27,920 nucleotides of DNA, from IMG/VR virus record IMGVR_UViG_3300045988_162894; one strand, 5' to 3'. Position 1 is the first letter of the stretch. Every line of letters begins with the position of its first letter. Source of the DNA: a virus. Taxonomy: Duplodnaviria; Heunggongvirae; Uroviricota; Caudoviricetes. Below, piece by piece: positions 171 to 16,413 of this stretch. Below the pieces are notes generated by a model. The model worked only from the letters and a program-made list of their open reading frames with translations. It was not told the origin of the DNA and ran no database searches. The position numbers were made by a program, and so were the translations under genes.

Positions 171-1385
171 ATGACTAAGCAAAAAAAACCTAGGAAAGTT
201 CGGATAACAAAAGCTGAAAAAGAACGACGTGCAGAGTTTGATAAAAAGGAAATGAATATACGTGAGTATTTTTCAAATTTAAATAAACATGTGAACGATA
301 TTCGTAGTAAAGAGCGAGATTTTCATGGCCTTATCAGAGAACTGAATTACTTTCAAAAAAATATTGAATTTGAATACGAGAAAACGAGGGACATATCCCA
401 TCCAAGAGACTTAGGCAATGCTCGCGAAAATATACTAAAAGATTTTTTGAAATTAAGCGGTTTATTCCCAAGGCGTTATGCTGTGTCTTCAAGAAGCGTA
501 AGAGTTGCTGCTGCTACAGGACATCTTAGCAACGAGATTGACATCGCATTATATGATGCAGATGATGGATATGTGCTAATGCAGCGTAACGAAATATATG
601 ATGTTTACCCTTCTGAAAATGTATATGGAGTTATTCAAGTAAAATCAAAACTTACTAGGAAAGAATTAAGCAGTGCCATAAAAAATATTGCATCATATAA
701 AAAACTACAAAGAAAAAAGAATGGCCATGGATTTTTTATAAATAACACATCATTCTCAGGGTTCGGAGTTGTTTTTGCATATGAAACAGAAATGCACTGG
801 GATGATATAGTATCTGCTCTTAAGGAAGAAATCCAGAGTAATGAAACAAAATTACTACCCAATGCAGTTTTCATATTAAATAAAGGCTATTTTTTATTTG
901 GTAACAACAATGAATATCTGAGTTATAATTCAGATAGGATGATTAATGCAACTGACATGATTGTACATGGCTTTCCTGATCGTGATGGTTGTTCCTTAGT
1001 TAACTTCCACAAGTTAATGATTACATTGTTGAATAATACTCAAAAAGGGAATGTAAATATAAGTGATTATTATAGATTACCTTTAACTGCTGGAGATTAT
1101 TCTTACGAATTTAATTTTGGTATGTTTAATGAGTTAATTAACTGTGAAGTACACGGTCCATATCATCGTTTATTCAAAGAGAAAGCTTTAAAAACATTAG
1201 TAAATTATTGTGTTAGCAATGAACAGATTAATATGGTTAAGTTAATCGACTTGGCTTTAGGTAAAACTCCAAATAATGAGGAAGCATACCAAAGACAACC
1301 ATCGATGGTGACATTATATAACCCAGAAAATTTGCCACTACCTGAATTAATGTTTAGGGCGGTTCCGATGGTAAAGAATATATGA
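171..1385 (+). CDS. Hypothetical 404-aa protein in AT-rich cargo DNA; possible PD-(D/E)xK-like nuclease core (candidate defence/abortive-infection gene)
   Basis: Uninterrupted 1215-nt ORF in visibly AT-rich DNA where random stops are frequent. Possible extended -10 (TGATATGAT, 118-126) upstream. By eye the motifs E(NARENILKDF)...D(EIDIALYD)...QxK(GVIQVKSK) follow the helix-strand-strand spacing of PD-(D/E)xK nucleases. No tyrosine-recombinase motifs seen. Function is inference only. Confidence 0.6.
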   Translation: MTKQKKPRKVRITKAEKERRAEFDKKEMNIREYFSNLNKHVNDIRSKERDFHGLIRELNYFQKNIEFEYEKTRDISHPRDLGNARENILKDFLKLSGLFPRRYAVSSRSVRVAAATGHLSNEIDIALYDADDGYVLMQRNEIYDVYPSENVYGVIQVKSKLTRKELSSAIKNIASYKKLQRKKNGHGFFINNTSFSGFGVVFAYETEMHWDDIVSALKEEIQSNETKLLPNAVFILNKGYFLFGNNNEYLSYNSDRMINATDMIVHGFPDRDGCSLVNFHKLMITLLNNTQKGNVNISDYYRLPLTAGDYSYEFNFGMFNELINCEVHGPYHRLFKEKALKTLVNYCVSNEQINMVKLIDLALGKTPNNEEAYQRQPSMVTLYNPENLPLPELMFRAVPMVKNI

Positions 1386-1795: not shown

Positions 1796-1990
1796 TTACT
1801 CAATTACTCCAGCAAACCTGTATATCTTACGTGATGCCCATTTATTTGGGCAGGATTTAATATCAGGATCTGGAAAATCTTGTCTGTATTTCTGGCCAGT
1901 CCTCCTATTTACGCTGTTCCAGCGAAGCACCGTTGATATTGAAACGCCACAGAATTCGGCGACTTGTTTTGTTGTCATTAAGTTGTTCAT
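1796..1990 (-). CDS. AlpA-family phage transcriptional regulator / excisionase-like small HTH protein
   Basis: 64-aa ORF; TTKQVAEFCGVSISTVLRW matches the AlpA/Vis-type HTH pattern. Strong RBS GGAGGGG 5 nt upstream of the ATG on the minus strand. Confidence 0.7.
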   Translation of the reverse strand: MNNLMTTKQVAEFCGVSISTVLRWNSVNRRTGQKYRQDFPDPDIKSCPNKWASRKIYRFAGVIE

Positions 1991-2024
1991 TGCTGCCCCT
2001 CCAGCGATTGTTCAGTTGAAAGAC

Positions 2025-2561
2025 TTATGCGCATGTGTGTAACTCCGATAACTCGTTAAAGCGCTCTATAAACATCCCGTAGGCATGGCCCGGTGCCAGT
2101 GGAATCACGTTGAACATCTCTGTTGCCGGGATGCCTTCCAGCACAGGCCAGAAAGAGCCATCATCAAGCCCGAGATCGCGGCGTTCGGTTGCCAGCATGA
2201 TGAGATCGGCATATTTCACGGGCGTACTCATAACTGGGGGTAACCCGTATTTCTCACGGATTACGGCGTCTATTTTTTCTTCCATCCGTTTATAGTCAGG
2301 AAGAAGGCGTTTCAGTGGTGCGGGGATGTCCTGGCAATATGCTTCTGTTGCATCATGCATTAACGCTTCAAAAACAAATTCCTGCGGTACCAGCTGGCTG
2401 CAAAGCACCGCATGTTGGGCGACGCTGTAGAAGTGTGAAAGATGCCCTGCAAAGCGACAGATATTTGAAAGGGAAACCGCGATATCGTTAATCACGATAT
2501 CGTCTTTATTTATCTTGTCATAATAAAAATGCTTCCCGGAAAAAGTTTTAATAAATGACAT
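2025..2561 (-). CDS. HD-domain phosphohydrolase (YfdR-like, 5'-deoxynucleotidase-type fold)
   Basis: Motifs RFAGH...SVAQHA...LMHDATEAY typical of HD-domain metal-dependent phosphohydrolases. Start placed at internal ATG 2561 (GGAG RBS 7 nt upstream) rather than the GTG at 2591. Confidence 0.65.
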   Translation of the reverse strand: MSFIKTFSGKHFYYDKINKDDIVINDIAVSLSNICRFAGHLSHFYSVAQHAVLCSQLVPQEFVFEALMHDATEAYCQDIPAPLKRLLPDYKRMEEKIDAVIREKYGLPPVMSTPVKYADLIMLATERRDLGLDDGSFWPVLEGIPATEMFNVIPLAPGHAYGMFIERFNELSELHTCA

Positions 2562-2688
2562 TTTGTTCTCCACGTATATGTGCTGCACCACGCTGAATTC
2601 TGGTAAAAGGAAGCCCTCACCATCCGGCGATTATTGAGTTAATTACGTTTCCATAAATGCCCCCGCAGGGGCATTTGCAGTAATGAAA

Positions 2689-3513
2689 TCAGGCGCTGAA
2701 AGTACCAATGAAGGTTTCTACTTTGCTGTCTTTGAATTTCTCAACAAGCAGATCACGAAATTCGTTAGCCATTTCTTCCTGCACCGCTTCCAGCTGAATA
2801 ATGCGCAGAACCAGTACAGGACGATCGCCAGTGATAATGCTGAGGCGTAATTTAAACGGACGTTCTTTCAGGCCTTCAAACGGAACGCATTTAAATTCAA
2901 ATGCCACTGGCATAATATCTTTGGTTTTCGCTTCGACAGACTCCATCAGGGAGCGTTTGCCGCTGAAGTCATTATCTTCAAAATCAGCGGTCTGGTTTGC
3001 TTCAATCGTGATTTTACGGACAGCCGCAGCCGCTTTTGTTGCCTGAATAGCGTCACCATTAGCATCAAAGCCCACAAGGTAGCCGGCCCAGTCTTCAATC
3101 CATTCTGCCAGTGACTTCTGGGAATGACGCTCGCCATTAACAGACAACAGAGCAGAGAACGGTGCTGTCTTTTTCAGTTTGAGAGTGGCGGTGTTATCTG
3201 CGTGACCTGGTTCATCAATAGTACCCAGGTTAAGCACACTGACGGCTCGCATATTATCGGCATCGATAAAGCAGCGGGTGCCTTCATCTGCAAGATCTTT
3301 AGAATAACGGGTAAAGTCATCGATGCTGGCAGTGGAAAGCGCACCACGGAAACGGAAGCGATTTAAATTAAATTTTTCCAGATCATGAATGCGGAAATTC
3401 TCAGGCAATGCCACAGCATCGGCACCAATCTTACTGATAATTTCATTAACACCCTGAGCAGAAATAAGGGCATGGATTTGATTAATTGCGGTTGCGTCTA
3501 AGTTCTGAGACAT
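2689..3513 (-). CDS. DUF2303-family protein (YfdQ-like)
   Basis: 274-aa ORF with AGGA RBS; length and sequence recalled as resembling CPS-53/KpLE1 YfdQ. Gene order yfdP-yfdQ-yfdR is conserved here. Confidence 0.6.
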
Positions 3514-3578
3514 AATAAGTCCTCACTATATAAAGATATTCAGTGATGAGATAAATAATCAGTTAATTAAAAACGATA

Positions 3579-3941
3579 TTAACGACCTGCTGCGCGGAGT
3601 TTTCCGTCAGGTTCACCGGCAAGAGTCAGTAACTGTCCCTGGTCTTCCTGCAGAATAGTCAGGCGACCACCGCGATTGACATACATCGGCGTTTCGGTGG
3701 TGTCTTCTTCGGAAATTTTCCCGCGGTTAGTCGGGCGAACATATGAGAGTTTGTGTTTGATTTTCACACGGTTCTCATCAAATGGTTCGATTTCCAGGTT
3801 GAGTGAGACCTTACCTTTGGTTTTCGTGTTCATCACACCGGAAGCGACTTCACTGAGAACTGCGCCGATTTTGGTTTCAAATACGCCGCCGTCCAGCTCC
3901 CCGATAAATGCCTGCACATCAGTACTGCGTTCGCTAGCCAT
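3579..3941 (-). CDS. YfdP-like hypothetical phage protein (120 aa)
   Basis: The track ORF 3579-4259 extends upstream with non-protein-like R/C-rich sequence. Start placed at ATG 3941, preceded by AGGAG with 8-nt spacing. Confidence 0.55.
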   Translation of the reverse strand: MASERSTDVQAFIGELDGGVFETKIGAVLSEVASGVMNTKTKGKVSLNLEIEPFDENRVKIKHKLSYVRPTNRGKISEEDTTETPMYVNRGGRLTILQEDQGQLLTLAGEPDGKLRAAGR

Positions 3942-3989
3942 TTTGCTGCTCCTCATCATATCGACCCTGCAAGGCCGATTAGTTTCTCC

Positions 3990-4078
3990 ACAAAACAGAG
4001 AAGAACACCTGCGGTGGCAGCCGCCCGGATGGATTGGGTTATGAGCCCGTCGTCCGGTGATGCTCTTCTCTGTTTTGT
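3990..4078. other. Long imperfect hairpin (18-bp arms ACAAAACAGAGAAGAACA / TGCTCTTCTCTGTTTTGT, one mismatch, 53-nt GC-rich loop) within a GC-rich stretch lacking a convincing ORF; candidate structured RNA or DNA site
   Basis: Arms read directly from sequence. The surrounding 3942-4378 has only junk-like overlapping ORFs in the track. Confidence 0.4.
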
Positions 4079-4378
4079 AAAAAGGACGGTACCAGCCGGA
4101 AGCAAGGGTACAAACTGGTACCGCCGGGACTACACACAGCATAAAGTTGTGGTGCCGGGTGCCTCCCGGTGCCTGGCGAAGGTTGCACACCAGACGGGTG
4201 GGTATCCACAGAAGGTCGACTGTCAGCCTCAACCTTAACCCGCGTGCGCTGAGCCGCATTCACCACAACGCTAAGGATTCTCTCTGGTTGAAAATACTTA
4301 GCTGTTATGTGCCTGTCTTTTCACCACTTCAGGCTCGGTGGGATCCTTTTAAGCCCGTATACATAAAAGGAAAATCAA

Positions 4379-4624
4379 ATGACTTTTGATGAAAAAGAAC
4401 TTGATAATGCAATTAATAAAATCATCGTAACGTCGCTCTTTTCCTGTCTCAGCGACACTCAGAAGAAACAGTTCTACGAATCGGTTTTCAACATGATCGA
4501 GCGTTGTTGTTTCTGCGATGCCGACGAGTTACCTGAAAAAATCAGGAAACAGTTGGCTGATGCTCTTCGAGTGCGACTTTCTGACCAATTTTCTGAAATG
4601 TGCTCTCCGAATTTGGACAAATAG
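4379..4624 (+). CDS. Hypothetical small acidic protein (81 aa), opposite orientation to the early-left operon
   Basis: Good RBS (AAGGAAAA, 5-nt spacer) and protein-like sequence. Overlaps convergently with the minus-strand ORF 4542-4817, so at most one of the two is likely real. Confidence 0.35.
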   Translation: MTFDEKELDNAINKIIVTSLFSCLSDTQKKQFYESVFNMIERCCFCDADELPEKIRKQLADALRVRLSDQFSEMCSPNLDK

Positions 4625-4817
4625 AAAAAGGCCATTTCCATTCAGGGTCTGATGGAAATACTTCAGCCTGTTCCAAAGCACGGCGTAAAGAGAACACAAC
4701 TCCAGCCATAATCTGATGTTTCCCATTGGTCCAGCTATCGCCGCTCTGATCTACAGGGGCGGCTATGTCGTATGACCAAACGACTTCACAGTTATTGTTT
4801 AAAATCTGGACTTTCAT
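4542..4817 (-). CDS. Hypothetical small protein (91 aa) in the first-gene position of the presumed early-left (PL) transcript
   Basis: ATG at 4817 with AGGTG RBS 6 nt upstream. No arginine-rich motif, so not an N-like antiterminator. A hairpin plus T-run on the minus strand (4625-4660) lies inside it, which weakens the call. Confidence 0.3.
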   Translation of the reverse strand: MKVQILNNNCEVVWSYDIAAPVDQSGDSWTNGKHQIMAGVVFSLRRALEQAEVFPSDPEWKWPFSICPNSESTFQKIGQKVALEEHQPTVS

Positions 4818-4941
4818 TTCATACACCTGCTTTAACATGAGTGCCTGGTGGCACAACATGACTCAACGAATCATCCTGGACTTCATATGCCCCAGGCGGC
4901 TACTTCGTGGGCGTCCTGCCTGTTCGTTATCTTTGATATAA

Positions 4942-5007
4942 AATCTAACTTAACTTAGTTATTATGGCAAGAGAAAACACCAAACTTTTCTTAGTTCGGT
5001 GCCTTAG
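4942..5007 (-). promoter_or_regulatory. Putative OL/PL region: operator-like CTAAC-TTAA-CTTAG (4945-4958) overlapping candidate leftward promoter (-35 TTGCCA at 4965-4970, -10 TAGATT at 4942-4947 on minus strand); further CTTAG copies at 4990-4994 and 5003-5007
   Basis: Same half-site and spacing as the palindromes in the cI-cro intergenic region. Promoter hexamers identified by eye with 17-bp spacer. Confidence 0.4.
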
Positions 5008-5023: not shown

Positions 5024-5650
5024 TTAGAGTTCGTATTGAACTCCTTTGACTACACCAATGATAAGGCAATTACCATTGATAGGGATGTTGGGATACCGAG
5101 GATTTAATGGCACTAAAAACTTTTGAGGGCCATCGATGACTAATTTTTTTACTGTAGCTTCGTTTGTTCCATCAAGTCGAGCGATGACTATTTTTCCATG
5201 ACGAGGTTCTGCATCTGGATCTACAATCACTGTTGCGCCTTCTGGTATTGTTGGGAGGCCATTAGGGTTAGTCATGGAGTCACCTTTAACCTCTAATGCA
5301 AATGAGTTATCACCAATCTTTAATGATGTATCTACCCACTTGTCCACTTCACTAAACACTTCTGCTGCCCTGCACTCAGTAAACTGCCCAGCCTGAACCC
5401 ACGATATTACAGGAACTCTGCGCATGTTTGTGACGAGTTTGCCTTCAAACTCAGCACCATAAAGAATGTAATCTATTGACGTATTGAAGAACTTCGCTAA
5501 TTTCGAAAGTGCCTCCCCACCAGGGGTATTGATGTCTTTCTCCCAGTACCCCACAGCAACGTCGCTTACTCCACAAAATTTACCCAATTCTTTCTGGGAC
5601 GTTCCGGTAACTCTTCTCAGAGCTTTTATACGCTGACCAACCGTTTCCAT
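5024..5650 (-). CDS. cI: CI-like prophage repressor (N-terminal HTH, C-terminal S24 LexA-like autopeptidase domain)
   Basis: 208 aa. N-terminal HTH (QKELGKFCGVSDVAVGYWEKD) and C-terminal S24 peptidase-like segment (GDSM...ATVIVDPD...GKIVIARL). Divergent from a Cro-like gene. No SD upstream, consistent with a leaderless transcript as for lambda cI. Confidence 0.85.
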   Translation of the reverse strand: METVGQRIKALRRVTGTSQKELGKFCGVSDVAVGYWEKDINTPGGEALSKLAKFFNTSIDYILYGAEFEGKLVTNMRRVPVISWVQAGQFTECRAAEVFSEVDKWVDTSLKIGDNSFALEVKGDSMTNPNGLPTIPEGATVIVDPDAEPRHGKIVIARLDGTNEATVKKLVIDGPQKFLVPLNPRYPNIPINGNCLIIGVVKGVQYEL

Positions 5651-5747: not shown

Positions 5748-5948
5748 ATGACAACTGACGATATCGAAAGCTACTTCGGCAGTATTGAGAAAGTTGCTGC
5801 TTTTTTCGGCATAACAACTGAAGCCGTTTATCAGTGGCGAAACCGTCCGGGCCAGTTAATTCCAAAAGGACGTGCAGCAGAAGCTGCATATAGAACTTGC
5901 GGACGGTTGCCATTTAAACCTGAGCTTTATGAAAAATCTAATGGATAA
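5748..5948 (+). CDS. cro: Cro-like (YdaS/P22 Cro-type) HTH regulator
   Basis: 66 aa, GGAGGG RBS. HTH with AVYQW motif. Position divergent from the repressor. Confidence 0.7.
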   Translation: MTTDDIESYFGSIEKVAAFFGITTEAVYQWRNRPGQLIPKGRAAEAAYRTCGRLPFKPELYEKSNG

Positions 5949-6537
5949 ATCGATTAACAGAAACCACAGAACGATGAGGCTAACCGTGGGTAAGCATCAC
6001 TGGAAAGTAGAAAAACAGCCTGAGTGGTACGTGAAAGCTGTCAGAAAAACTATCGCAGCGTTGCCGGGTGGTTACGCTGAAGCAGCTGACTGGCTGGATG
6101 TAACAGAAAACGCATTATTTAACCGCCTTCGTGCCGATGGCGATCAGATTTTCCCGCTGGGATGGGCAATGATTTTGCAACGTGCTGGTGGAACTCACTT
6201 CATTGCTGACGCTGTGGCGCAGTCTGCAAATGGCGTCTTTGTGTCTCTTCCTGACGTCGAGGATGTGGACAACGCCGATATTAACCAGCGCCTGCTGGAA
6301 GTCATTGAACAGATTGGCAGTTATTCCAGACAGATTCGTTCGGCAATCGAAGACGGTGTGGTGGAACCGCATGAGAAGACAGCAATTAACGACGAGCTGT
6401 ATCTCTCAATTTCGAAGCTGCAGGAGCATGCAGCACTGGTCTACAAAATCTTTTGCATTTCAGAAAGTAATGACGCCCGCGAGTGTGCAGCTCCGGGCGC
6501 CGTGGCGTGTCGTGACTGTGGAGAAACTAACGCATGA
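5929..6537 (+). CDS. CII-like / YdaT-like early regulatory protein (family assignment uncertain)
   Basis: Occupies the cII position downstream of cro. Start ambiguous (ATG 5929 or 5941, overlapping the cro stop). Family recalled, not verified. Confidence 0.45.
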
Positions 6538-12246: not shown

Positions 12247-12546
12247 AAAAATTCCTTAATACTGATAACTGGGCGCACTATACACACGTTCCTGAAGAAA
12301 GCTATAGTTTTTTGATGGGGGTGAAGATGGCTGGATGTCTAAAATAAACATTGCTTCATATGTTCAACTATGCGTTAATGATTGCGTCGGTTTGAAGAAC
12401 AGACGATATACGAAGTAGTTTACTAAAGCAGTTCTCATTTCAGGTGTTATTCACTTATTCCTTCTTTGAGTCTCTCCAATTAAGTACGAAGTCGTTTCTG
12501 TTATACAAGCCATTTATGCCGAAAGGCTCAAGTTAAGGAATGTAGA

Positions 12547-12762
12547 ATGTCAAATAAAATGACTGGTTTAGTAAAATGGTTTAACGCTGATAAAGGTTTC
12601 GGCTTTATTTCTCCTGTTGATGGTAGTAAAGATGTGTTTGTGCATTTTTCTGCGATTCAGAATGATAATTTTCGAACCTTATTTGAAGGTCAAAAGGTTA
12701 CCTTCTCTGTAGAGAGTGGTGCTAAAGGTCCTGCAGCAGCAAATGTCATAATTACTGATTAA
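12547..12762 (+). CDS. cspB: Cold-shock protein CspB-like (CspA family)
   Basis: 71 aa [38 protein letters not shown]...; AAGGA RBS. Confidence 0.8.
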
Positions 12763-13043
12763 AATTCATAGTTTGTCTGTATACGATAACGAAGAAGGCT
12801 GATGCCTGAGTGGAGATACAGACAGAGTGGTGAATATTGGATCTCTTTAATAAATAGTAAGGAGGTCCAATACATGAAACAATGGCCAGCATATTTGGCA
12901 ATAACTTAATCAGGAAAAGTATGCTAACCATTGTGGTGAAGTGCAGGTTTGCTGCATGAATAGTTTTACAGCAGAAGCTAACTGCTGGCATAGCAAAACA
13001 AAGTGCGTAAGTGGATGACTCCCACAAAAAGTACCACAATATT

Positions 13044-15635: not shown

Positions 15636-15997
15636 ATTAATATTAAATCGGATTGTTTTTAGCGCTGAATGTGAAATTTAAATAAAAAGGACTCTTCCAT
15701 GAGTCAAAATCCTTGAAATCTTAAGGGTAAGATAAAAGGTCATTAGACAGAATGACACGTTTTATTAATAAATAAAGCTATTGTTTCATTCGTGTGTTTT
15801 TCTTTACAAAAGTAATCCTTGCTATGGTTGGTTAATCATGCGTTAATGGTGTTCTGGTTTGTTACAAAATTATCTGAAGCAGTCATTGTTATAATTTTAT
15901 TATTTGTACCTCTTGAGATTTCCTTGTTGGTTTTTCTCTCTGATATTTTTTTTCGGACCATTCGCCCAAGGGCTAACTTCTTCAAAAGGTAATAATG

Positions 15998-16210
15998 ATG
16001 TCTAACAAAATGACTGGTTTAGTGAAATGGTTTAACCCTGAAAAAGGTTTTGGTTTCATCACGCCGAAAGATGGTAGCAAAGATGTGTTTGTCCATTTCT
16101 CAGTTATTCAGAGCAACGATTTCAAAACGTTAACTGAGAATCAGGAAGTCGAATTTGGTATTGAGAACGGACCTAAAGGCCCCGCGGCTGTTCATGTAGT
16201 GGCACTTTGA
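15998..16210 (+). CDS. cspI: Cold-shock protein CspI-like (CspA family)
   Basis: [35 protein letters not shown]...; long AT-rich 5' leader typical of csp genes. Confidence 0.8.
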
Positions 16211-16413
16211 GGTAGAAAATATTACAAACCATATTCACTTTAGATGCCCGTGTTGCCATGGTTCTCAGTATAGAACATCATCTTTTGATGTTTCTGACAG
16301 GAATCCTTTCGGGGCAAAATGTATCTTTTGTAAATCAATGATGATTACATTTGATAATATTTCACAATACTTAAATGTTAGCCGTCTGTCGTTAGATTTA
16401 AGAAAGTGAAAAT

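Follow-up and report, generated by a model that had tools for sequence, protein, structure and literature searches.

A convergent pair of overlapping genes beside the repressor gene of an SfV/e14-type prophage: two conserved reading frames with a dual-coding segment

Introduction

Which of two oppositely oriented open reading frames (ORFs) that overlap beside a phage repressor gene is a real gene, and what might such a pair be for? The question is raised by positions 4379-4817 of the viral record IMGVR_UViG_3300045988_162894 (Caudoviricetes), a stretch of 27,920 nucleotides (nt), the whole of which is termed the window below. A sequence-only reading of this DNA, made without database searches, described a plus-strand ORF, here called B, and a minus-strand ORF, here called A, and much of that description stands. 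B (4379-4624) encodes an acidic protein of 81 amino acids (aa) behind a good ribosome-binding site, AAGGAA 6 nt before the ATG; A encodes 91 aa and overlaps B by 83 bp (4542-4624); and A occupies the position of gene N, no other ORF lying between it and the predicted PL/OL promoter-operator region. Neither ORF resembles N, as judged by the lack of any Pfam, NCBIfam or PHROG antiterminator match. The same reading asked which of the two ORFs is real. The overlap proved genuine, and the choice is not an either/or: both ORFs are real genes, and their overlap is partly dual-coding.

The window represents the early region of an SfV/e14-type lambdoid prophage, with Shigella phage SfV as its best match (99% identity), and approximately 404 of 5426 complete E. 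coli genomes (~7%) carry the A/B locus. Below we set out the conservation of the two frames and of their overlap, discuss the position of the pair and a possible mode of its expression, weigh alternative explanations and outline the RNA elements that flank the genes.

Conservation of both reading frames

We compared the window with eight diverged loci (homolog contigs from searches with A, plus locus L100), which together span Rac-like YdaS/YdaT phages, S24-repressor phages and a Salmonella prophage; two more copies of the L094 type, L106 and L108, were left out of the nine-locus analyses. The nine loci share 57-95% pairwise nucleotide identity, and database searches with A yielded homologs of 49-68% amino acid identity, those in 8 other prophage contexts being 49-65% identical. 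Both ORFs are open in all nine loci, where A encodes 91-122 aa and B 74-81 aa, and the distance from the ATG of A to the ATG of B is exactly 439 nt in each of them, with zero indels even where pairwise nucleotide identity drops to 57-70%.

Codon substitutions across related prophages, an analysis that the sequence-only reading had proposed, reveal constraint on each frame in the part that it does not share with the other. In codons 1-64 of A, which lie wholly outside B, the proportion of synonymous differences (pS) is 0.627 over the 36 locus pairs and that of non-synonymous differences (pN) 0.202 (pN/pS 0.32), and the differences at the three codon positions number 611, 345 and 1029. The corresponding values for the window and locus L004 are pS 0.85 and pN 0.18, with 17/7/37 differences by codon position. 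For codons 1-54 of B, which lie outside A in the window, pN/pS across the 36 locus pairs is 0.27-0.34 (codons 1-23: pS 0.615, pN 0.207; codons 24-54: pS 0.774, pN 0.212), and the window and L004 differ with pS 0.83 and pN 0.20 (15/5/30 by codon position). In the same comparison of two loci, stops interrupt each of the five other frames of either segment, their pN/pS values scatter between 0.24 and 7.4, and pN equals or exceeds pS in three of the five. Since the exclusive parts of the two ORFs show purifying selection in their own frame only (pN/pS ~0.3), A and B are both genuine genes, which form one conserved convergent cassette of 439 bp. The outcomes that had been named in advance as speaking against the pair, namely a lack of synonymous-site signal or homologs in which both frames are interrupted, were found for neither gene.

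Individual sequence features are conserved as well. Among the homologs of A, the residues W14, W29, W60, W62 and F64 are invariant. B retains its start, its Shine-Dalgarno sequence (AAGGAAA, 6-7 nt ahead of the ATG in all nine pairs) and an RCC[YF]C motif. Among 83 near-identical copies of the window type, A is intact in every one, and the polymorphisms in its exclusive part comprise 7 synonymous and 2 non-synonymous changes; B is frameshifted by a 1-nt deletion in three of the 83.

The pair is found at more than one site. A complete A/B pair in L100 lies upstream of lysis/holin genes, and the pair moves as a unit between phages and genome positions.

The overlap and the ends of gene A

The overlap, which measures 83 bp in the window and 74-176 bp in homologs, sets position 1 of A codons opposite position 1 of B codons, position 2 opposite position 3 and position 3 opposite position 2, which is the most mutually constraining phase. 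Within it lies a core in which the consensus of A codons 73-85 reads xF[QR][KQ][IV][GA][QR]xVALE. The entropy at third positions of B is 0.49 bits in this core (n=13) versus 1.07 bits elsewhere in B (n=61; Mann-Whitney p=0.0009), and in the shared zone pN is 0.244 for A and 0.209 for B, as low as in the exclusive parts. Because the third-position variability of B is halved and both proteins diverge little there, approximately 13 codons are constrained in both frames and are thus dual-coding. In agreement with this, the two variable overlap sites among near-identical copies, 4602 and 4608, are synonymous in A and alter only the last, unconserved residues of B.

Beyond this core the end of A is free to vary. 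Its stop falls after 91, 93, 107 or 122 aa, most homologs reading on to 107-122 aa; codons 92-122 show a pN/pS of 1.75, and the apparent conservation of the tail (e.g., NSTDQSC) is the antisense of MIDRCCY in B. Residues 86-91 are unconstrained, and the functional part of A comprises about residues 1-85. At the other end, the frame is open from 4859 and offers in-frame ATGs at 4859, 4838 and 4817. The supported start is the ATG at 4817, giving 91 aa, because every diverged homolog starts with MKVQI there and has a Shine-Dalgarno sequence 6-7 nt upstream; the region above 4817 belongs to a conserved non-coding leader.

A minus-strand hairpin with a T-run, which the sequence-only reading had placed at the junction of the two ORFs (4625-4660), is present, but its reading as a junction terminator is not supported. 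It lies inside conserved coding sequence of A, the T-run representing the conserved codons W-P-F-S (TGG CCT TTT TC), and none of the eight diverged homologs has the stem. The stem folds with -14.2 kcal/mol (z -2.2), only a modest gain over chance given that 7 of 200 shuffles reach equal stability, and a U5 run comes after it; the terminator scan missed it owing to too few G-C pairs. The role of a conserved terminator was thus rejected, and the hairpin is probably incidental, or at most a lineage-specific attenuator. Likewise, the “terminator” annotated in SfV (window 4359-4391) was dismissed, as it is merely the antisense of the start and ribosome-binding site of B, with an A/U-rich 6-bp stem. 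The features of the locus are compiled in Table 1.

Table 1. Features at and around the A/B locus (positions refer to the window)
Feature	Position	Strand	Remarks
Gene A	4542..4817	-	91 aa; phrog_3195 / SfV orf33; stop 4542-4544
A C-terminal tail	4542..4562	-	Residues 86-91 and stop; unconstrained
Gene B	4379..4624	+	81 aa, acidic; phrog_3311; stop TAG 4622-4624
Shine-Dalgarno sequence of B	4367..4372	+	AAGGAA, 6 nt before ATG
Candidate B promoter	4318..4347	+	TTTTCA (4318-4323), 18-nt spacer, TGG + GATCCT (4339-4347); putative, from sequence only
Dual-coding core	4563..4601	both	A codons 73-85 opposite B codons 62-74
Hairpin and U-run	4620..4668	-	Stem 4630-4668, U-run 4620-4629; inside A codons 50-66
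Predicted PL promoter	4942-4970	-	TTGCCA-17-TAGATT; promoter scan
Operator	4945-4958		CTAACTTAACTTAG; overlaps predicted PL
Conserved structured RNA, PL leader	4866..4927	-	62 nt, between PL and A
Candidate H-type pseudoknot	4311..4341	-	S1 CCAC/GUGG, S2 GCCUG/CAGGC, A-rich loop UGAAAAGA
STnc100-like RNA	4076..4299	-	RF02076; downstream of the pair on the PL transcript
Long hairpin	3985-4082	-	98 nt; between STnc100-like terminator and yfdP
S24/LexA-type repressor gene	5024-5650	-	Repressor (cI) of the prophage
cro	5748-5948	+	
CII-like gene	5935-6537		

Position of the pair and known parallels

The palindrome CTAAG-N4-CTTAG occurs three times in the 27.9-kb window (at 4945, 5673 and 5722) versus 0.41 copies expected, and all three copies flank the cI repressor gene. 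On these sequence grounds, we take the promoter predicted upstream of A as the repressor-controlled PL. A starts ~118 nt after the predicted PL start and follows the repressor gene by 190-310 nt in seven loci, and it is strongly supported that A is the first gene of an early-left operon driven by this promoter. In the Salmonella prophage L092, a 384-aa gene with an HSDR_N domain (2552-3706) stands between the repressor gene and PL, the position of rexAB in lambda; it may represent a defence gene that the prophage expresses.

B is antisense to PL in eight loci; the L100 pair, as noted, lies upstream of holins, and in L099 and L102 distant relatives of B sit between the Q and holin genes, antisense to the late operon. 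B is consistently antisense to a strong lytic operon, and A, where present, is co-oriented with that operon.

This arrangement is a variant of the known layout of N/sieB in lambda and ymfJ/ymfI in e14, made from two uncharacterised protein families. In lambda, sieB (34482-35036, plus strand) is convergent end to end with N (35037-35438, minus strand) just left of PL, and at both loci the first PL gene converges with a plus-strand gene that is antisense to PL. The sequence-only reading had compared the locus to the rexAB and sieB functions adjacent to cI; the analogy holds as far as position goes, B lying in exactly the lambda sieB slot and orientation, convergent with the gene at the place of N. 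The genes themselves differ. A is acidic, without an arginine-rich motif or a Pfam match, and is therefore not N; B, an 81-aa, predicted soluble three-helical protein compared to ~190 aa for SieB, is not SieB; and A and B, which share a dual-coded segment in a true overlap, are inherited together as an invariant unit of 439 bp. In P22, the comparable arrangement is that of gene 24 and sieB-esc with the antisense RNA sas. As Ranade and Poteete reportedly described in 1993, sieB is expressed from the prophage and excludes other phages, and P22 escapes via Esc and an antisense RNA.

A close architectural parallel is found in e14, which shares a LexA-like repressor, the PL-leader RNA, a hairpin/pseudoknot element and an STnc100-like region with the window. 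Between the same flanks, e14 harbours a convergent overlapping pair, ymfJ (minus strand) and ymfI (plus strand), with a 63-bp overlap, but there is no detectable sequence relationship of A to YmfJ or of B to YmfI. Homology of A/B to this pair, for which hhalign gave a probability of 0.2%, and to the SfII plus-strand gene was rejected. SfII, 689R6, SfIV and a Salmonella phage contain yet other pairs in the same slot. The ymfJ RNA and protein are SOS-induced, late in the response (PMC11002266), and ymfI-ymfJ has been scored as an excludon from RNA-seq data by ExcludonFinder (PMC12288877). In ST64B, two genes located downstream of CI rise jointly with the lytic genes, in a study that also cites the sas antisense RNA (PMC7067206).

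Excludons are convergent genes whose overlapping transcripts render their expression mutually exclusive. The A/B pair resembles them in that its genes converge and overlap at their 3' ends, and in that a strong promoter that can be switched, the predicted PL, drives one of the two. It differs in that the overlap lies within coding sequence and is dual-coding, not just in untranslated regions. A second class of comparison is provided by prophage “morons” that are antisense to lytic operons, such as lambda bor and STMMW_20121 of ST64B (PMC7067206). B and its distant relatives resemble them in running antisense to PL or the late operon; unlike these morons, B is tied to a specific sense-strand partner, A, in most of its occurrences.

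Such pairs may also be stacked in the slot, as suggested by L106 and L108, where a second, unrelated convergent overlapping pair, 1882-2115 (plus strand) and 2090-2326 (minus strand), of 77 and 78 aa lies right beyond A/B.

Protein properties and function searches

Searches of Pfam, NCBIfam and PADLOC returned no credible family for A or B (PADLOC: zero families for either), and sequence profiles from the PDB gave no match. In PHROGs, the proteins fall only into families of unknown function, phrog_3195 and phrog_3311. As read from sequence, A is net acidic and devoid of an arginine-rich motif, a signal peptide or membrane segments, and B is net acidic, without a signal peptide or membrane segments. 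Tested against lambda N, neither of the two acidic proteins has an arginine-rich motif or an N-family profile match; tested against SieB, B has no Pfam match above noise and is less than half as long.

Structure prediction yields for A a low-confidence model with a beta-hairpin and two helices (predicted local distance difference test score, pLDDT, 51), which for this score was excluded from the fold search. The AlphaFold (AF2) model of B is a three-helix bundle (pLDDT 79), for which the fold search returned no specific neighbour. An iron-sulfur or zinc cluster bound via the RCC[YF]C motif was rejected, as distant B relatives retain at most one of those cysteines.

A scan of viral contigs with A recovered identical copies only, and a scan of GTDB representative genomes with B recovered no relative. 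An exhaustive HMMER search extends the B relatives down to ~38% identity, and among them B homologs without any A exist as called genes in L099 and L102. The C-terminal half of A has a weak possible link to a 68-aa ORF of SfII (hhalign probability 43%, tblastn E 7e-3). Positions 1501-1545 of SfII (L091) retain the first 14 codons of A (MKVQILNNNCEVVW), followed by a different cassette; the segment looks like a recombination scar from a cassette exchange inside the A gene.

A proposed model of reciprocal expression

The layout of the locus lends itself to a model that is drawn by analogy with the systems above. On induction or infection, A would be transcribed from PL, and in the repressed prophage B would be transcribed from a promoter of its own as an accessory “moron” gene. 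Once PL fires, polymerase would read the whole of B, together with its promoter, from the opposite strand, and B would be silenced through transcriptional interference and the formation of RNA duplexes. Transcription of B, for which no recognisable intrinsic terminator was found on the plus strand after the gene, would in turn continue into A in the antisense direction and reduce any leaky expression of A. The pair would then act as a mutually exclusive “excludon”. The putative B promoter of the model belongs to a conserved block that precedes B in every pair, and also precedes unrelated plus-strand genes in e14, SfII and ESBL15; copies other than the window read TGG+TATCCT.

As a whole, the combination of two real genes with a PL-driven A and a prophage-expressed B under reciprocal control appears moderately probable to us, given the sequence and the parallels. 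A number of points weigh against it. The nine loci are not independent, as three of them share 92-95% identity with one another. In the distant relatives L099 and L102, B is found alone, so the partnership is not obligatory. The consensus promoter scan did not detect the candidate B promoter, and the window alone carries a T>G change at 4342, the first base of its -10 element. Finally, none of the homology or fold matches sought (Pfam, NCBIfam, PADLOC, PDB, fold search of B) gives either protein a function, and the structural model of A is of low confidence.

As to the products, we speculate that A and B probably act on the same process, because the genes travel together between phages and genome positions. 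With low confidence, and by analogy with SieB/Esc, B might serve exclusion or host modulation at the prophage stage, with A as a partner or antagonist that acts early in the lytic phase. A stronger version of this idea seems unlikely to us, namely that A/B is a mobile two-protein switch module, in which B would serve exclusion, abortive infection or host modulation and A would be its dedicated antagonist, the overlap and the 439-nt geometry being needed for reciprocal antisense control or for an interaction of C-terminal helices. If true, the module would be previously unrecognised, and it would represent a compact protein-level analogue of P22 SieB/Esc/sas.

Alternative explanations

Protein toxin-antitoxin pairs are normally co-transcribed, and the convergent orientation of A and B speaks against an addiction module of this kind, in which one product would be harmful, the other would neutralise it and the overlap would provide antisense control. 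Such a module would account for two small genes that are tightly co-inherited and mobile together, and other toxin-antitoxin loci lie nearby, Phd/Fic in L100 and HicAB and Sib in L102. However, neither protein has similarity to a toxin-antitoxin family in Pfam, NCBIfam or PADLOC, B stands alone in L099 and L102, and the three natural B frameshifts with an intact A argue against A as an unneutralised toxin. We consider this explanation quite improbable.

SfII, SfIV and SfV were reported to be devoid of N (PMC3851460), and A, which sits in the N position with a strong terminator downstream (~4078-4125), could be a novel protein antiterminator that replaces N in N-less phages, B being a passenger. 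The net acidic character of A and its lack of an arginine-rich motif do not fit this role. Moreover, sister phages with the same flanks hold unrelated genes in the slot (ymfJ in e14, and the genes of SfII, 689R6 and SfIV), whereas a structured PL-leader RNA is common to all these phages and is a likelier antitermination element. A protein antiterminator is thus very improbable.

That only one of the two ORFs is real is hardly credible in either form. If A alone were a gene, B would be a chance antisense ORF held open by the constraint on A, as might be concluded from the annotation of A alone by the Prokaryotic Genome Annotation Pipeline (PGAP; 91-aa version) and the SfV authors (orf33, 98-aa version) and from the gene callers behind a large protein database, which mostly call A and skip B; but codons 1-54 of B face an A frame that is closed (window, L092) or evolves at the pN/pS of 1.75 given above, and yet show pS 0.62-0.77 versus pN 0.21, their changes are dominated by third positions, the length, start, Shine-Dalgarno sequence and RCC[YF]C motif of B are conserved, and its homologs are called without A in L099 and L102. 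If B alone were a gene, as the vB_EcoM-720R4 record (B, not A) and the varying stop and unconstrained tail of A might suggest, the minus-strand ORF would be a read-through artefact in the PL leader, which is at odds with pS 0.63-0.85 versus pN 0.18-0.20 in A codons 1-64 outside B, the invariant tryptophans and F64, the conserved Shine-Dalgarno sequence and start, and the intact frame in 83 of 83 copies.

Both overlapping ORFs are thus genuine genes, and standard annotation reports one gene of the two; among the RefSeq records of E. coli and Shigella that were inspected, none lists the conserved protein B. The locus provides a clean case of dual-coding in a convergent overlap, and a candidate accessory module coupled to lysogeny and lysis in the sieB slot of lambda.

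Flanking RNA elements

The leader between PL and A contains a structured RNA, which occurs in 49 phage records (Escherichia, Salmonella, Yersinia, Pectobacterium and Klebsiella among the sources) and starts exactly where the immunity-specific sequence stops. RNAalifold predicts 15 pairs, 6 of which show compensatory changes. The covariance model scores 95 bits in the window; it also finds the L004 copy, at 74 bits, with a closing stem that is compensated throughout. The element resembles putL of phage HK022 in being a structured RNA of ~60-70 nt just downstream of PL in N-less phages, with similar end motifs, ACGAAC...CAGGAUGA; it differs in having no blastn match to HK022 and in occurring as a single copy in the window. 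Searched against HK022, the covariance model did not find putL or putR at E values up to 10, and on the covariance model and blastn results the RNA was not assigned to the HK022 put family. We regard the element as a candidate for an antitermination RNA of N-less phages and as a candidate functional analogue of put.

On the minus-strand (PL-direction) RNA, a segment just upstream of gene B may, on thin support, form an H-type pseudoknot; it may equally be the extended -10 promoter of B. In 10 variants 100% of cells pair, and 4 of 500 shuffles reach the observed score. Compensatory changes comprise two pairs from L096, and L094/L106 carry such changes too, with GCCGG/CCGGC and an extended S1. 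The bases of the pseudoknot are the same as those of the candidate B promoter, and the block is found upstream of the unrelated e14 and SfII plus-strand genes, too.

Further along the PL transcript lies an RNA that is predicted to be related to STnc100, though it scores below the family threshold: the RF02076 model yields 41.6 bits (E 2.3e-7) against a gathering threshold of 47 bits, in a full-length alignment including the terminator. The RNA ends in the intrinsic terminator at ~4078-4125 (-28.6 kcal/mol, z -3.8). A true STnc100 is located downstream of Q in L102. PGAP and the e14 annotation place spurious or frameshifted “YmfH” ORFs across this element; protein coding by such YmfH-like ORFs in the GC-rich region 3960-4300 was rejected in view of single-base indels between homologs, a PGAP frameshift and RNA-like structure. 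The long hairpin that follows (-49.7 kcal/mol, z -7.6) has a stem of ~24 bp and is conserved in mEp460 and Stx2c phages. Together, the PL-leader structure, the candidate pseudoknot and the STnc100-like terminator bear on the passage of early terminators in the N-less phages SfV, SfII, SfIV, e14 and ST64B.

Neighbouring genes and further observations

To the left of the pair, the early-left genes are yfdP-, yfdQ- (DUF2303) and yfdR-like. Near the left end of the window, a 404-aa ORF (171-1385, plus strand) matches PADLOC models of PD-DExK and NucC nucleases (E 2e-24 to 1e-16) and may encode a defence effector. The prophage also contains two cold-shock protein genes, as indicated by cspA-type thermoregulator leaders (RF01766) at 12386-12825 (158 bits) and 15841-16256 (114 bits), both on the plus strand.

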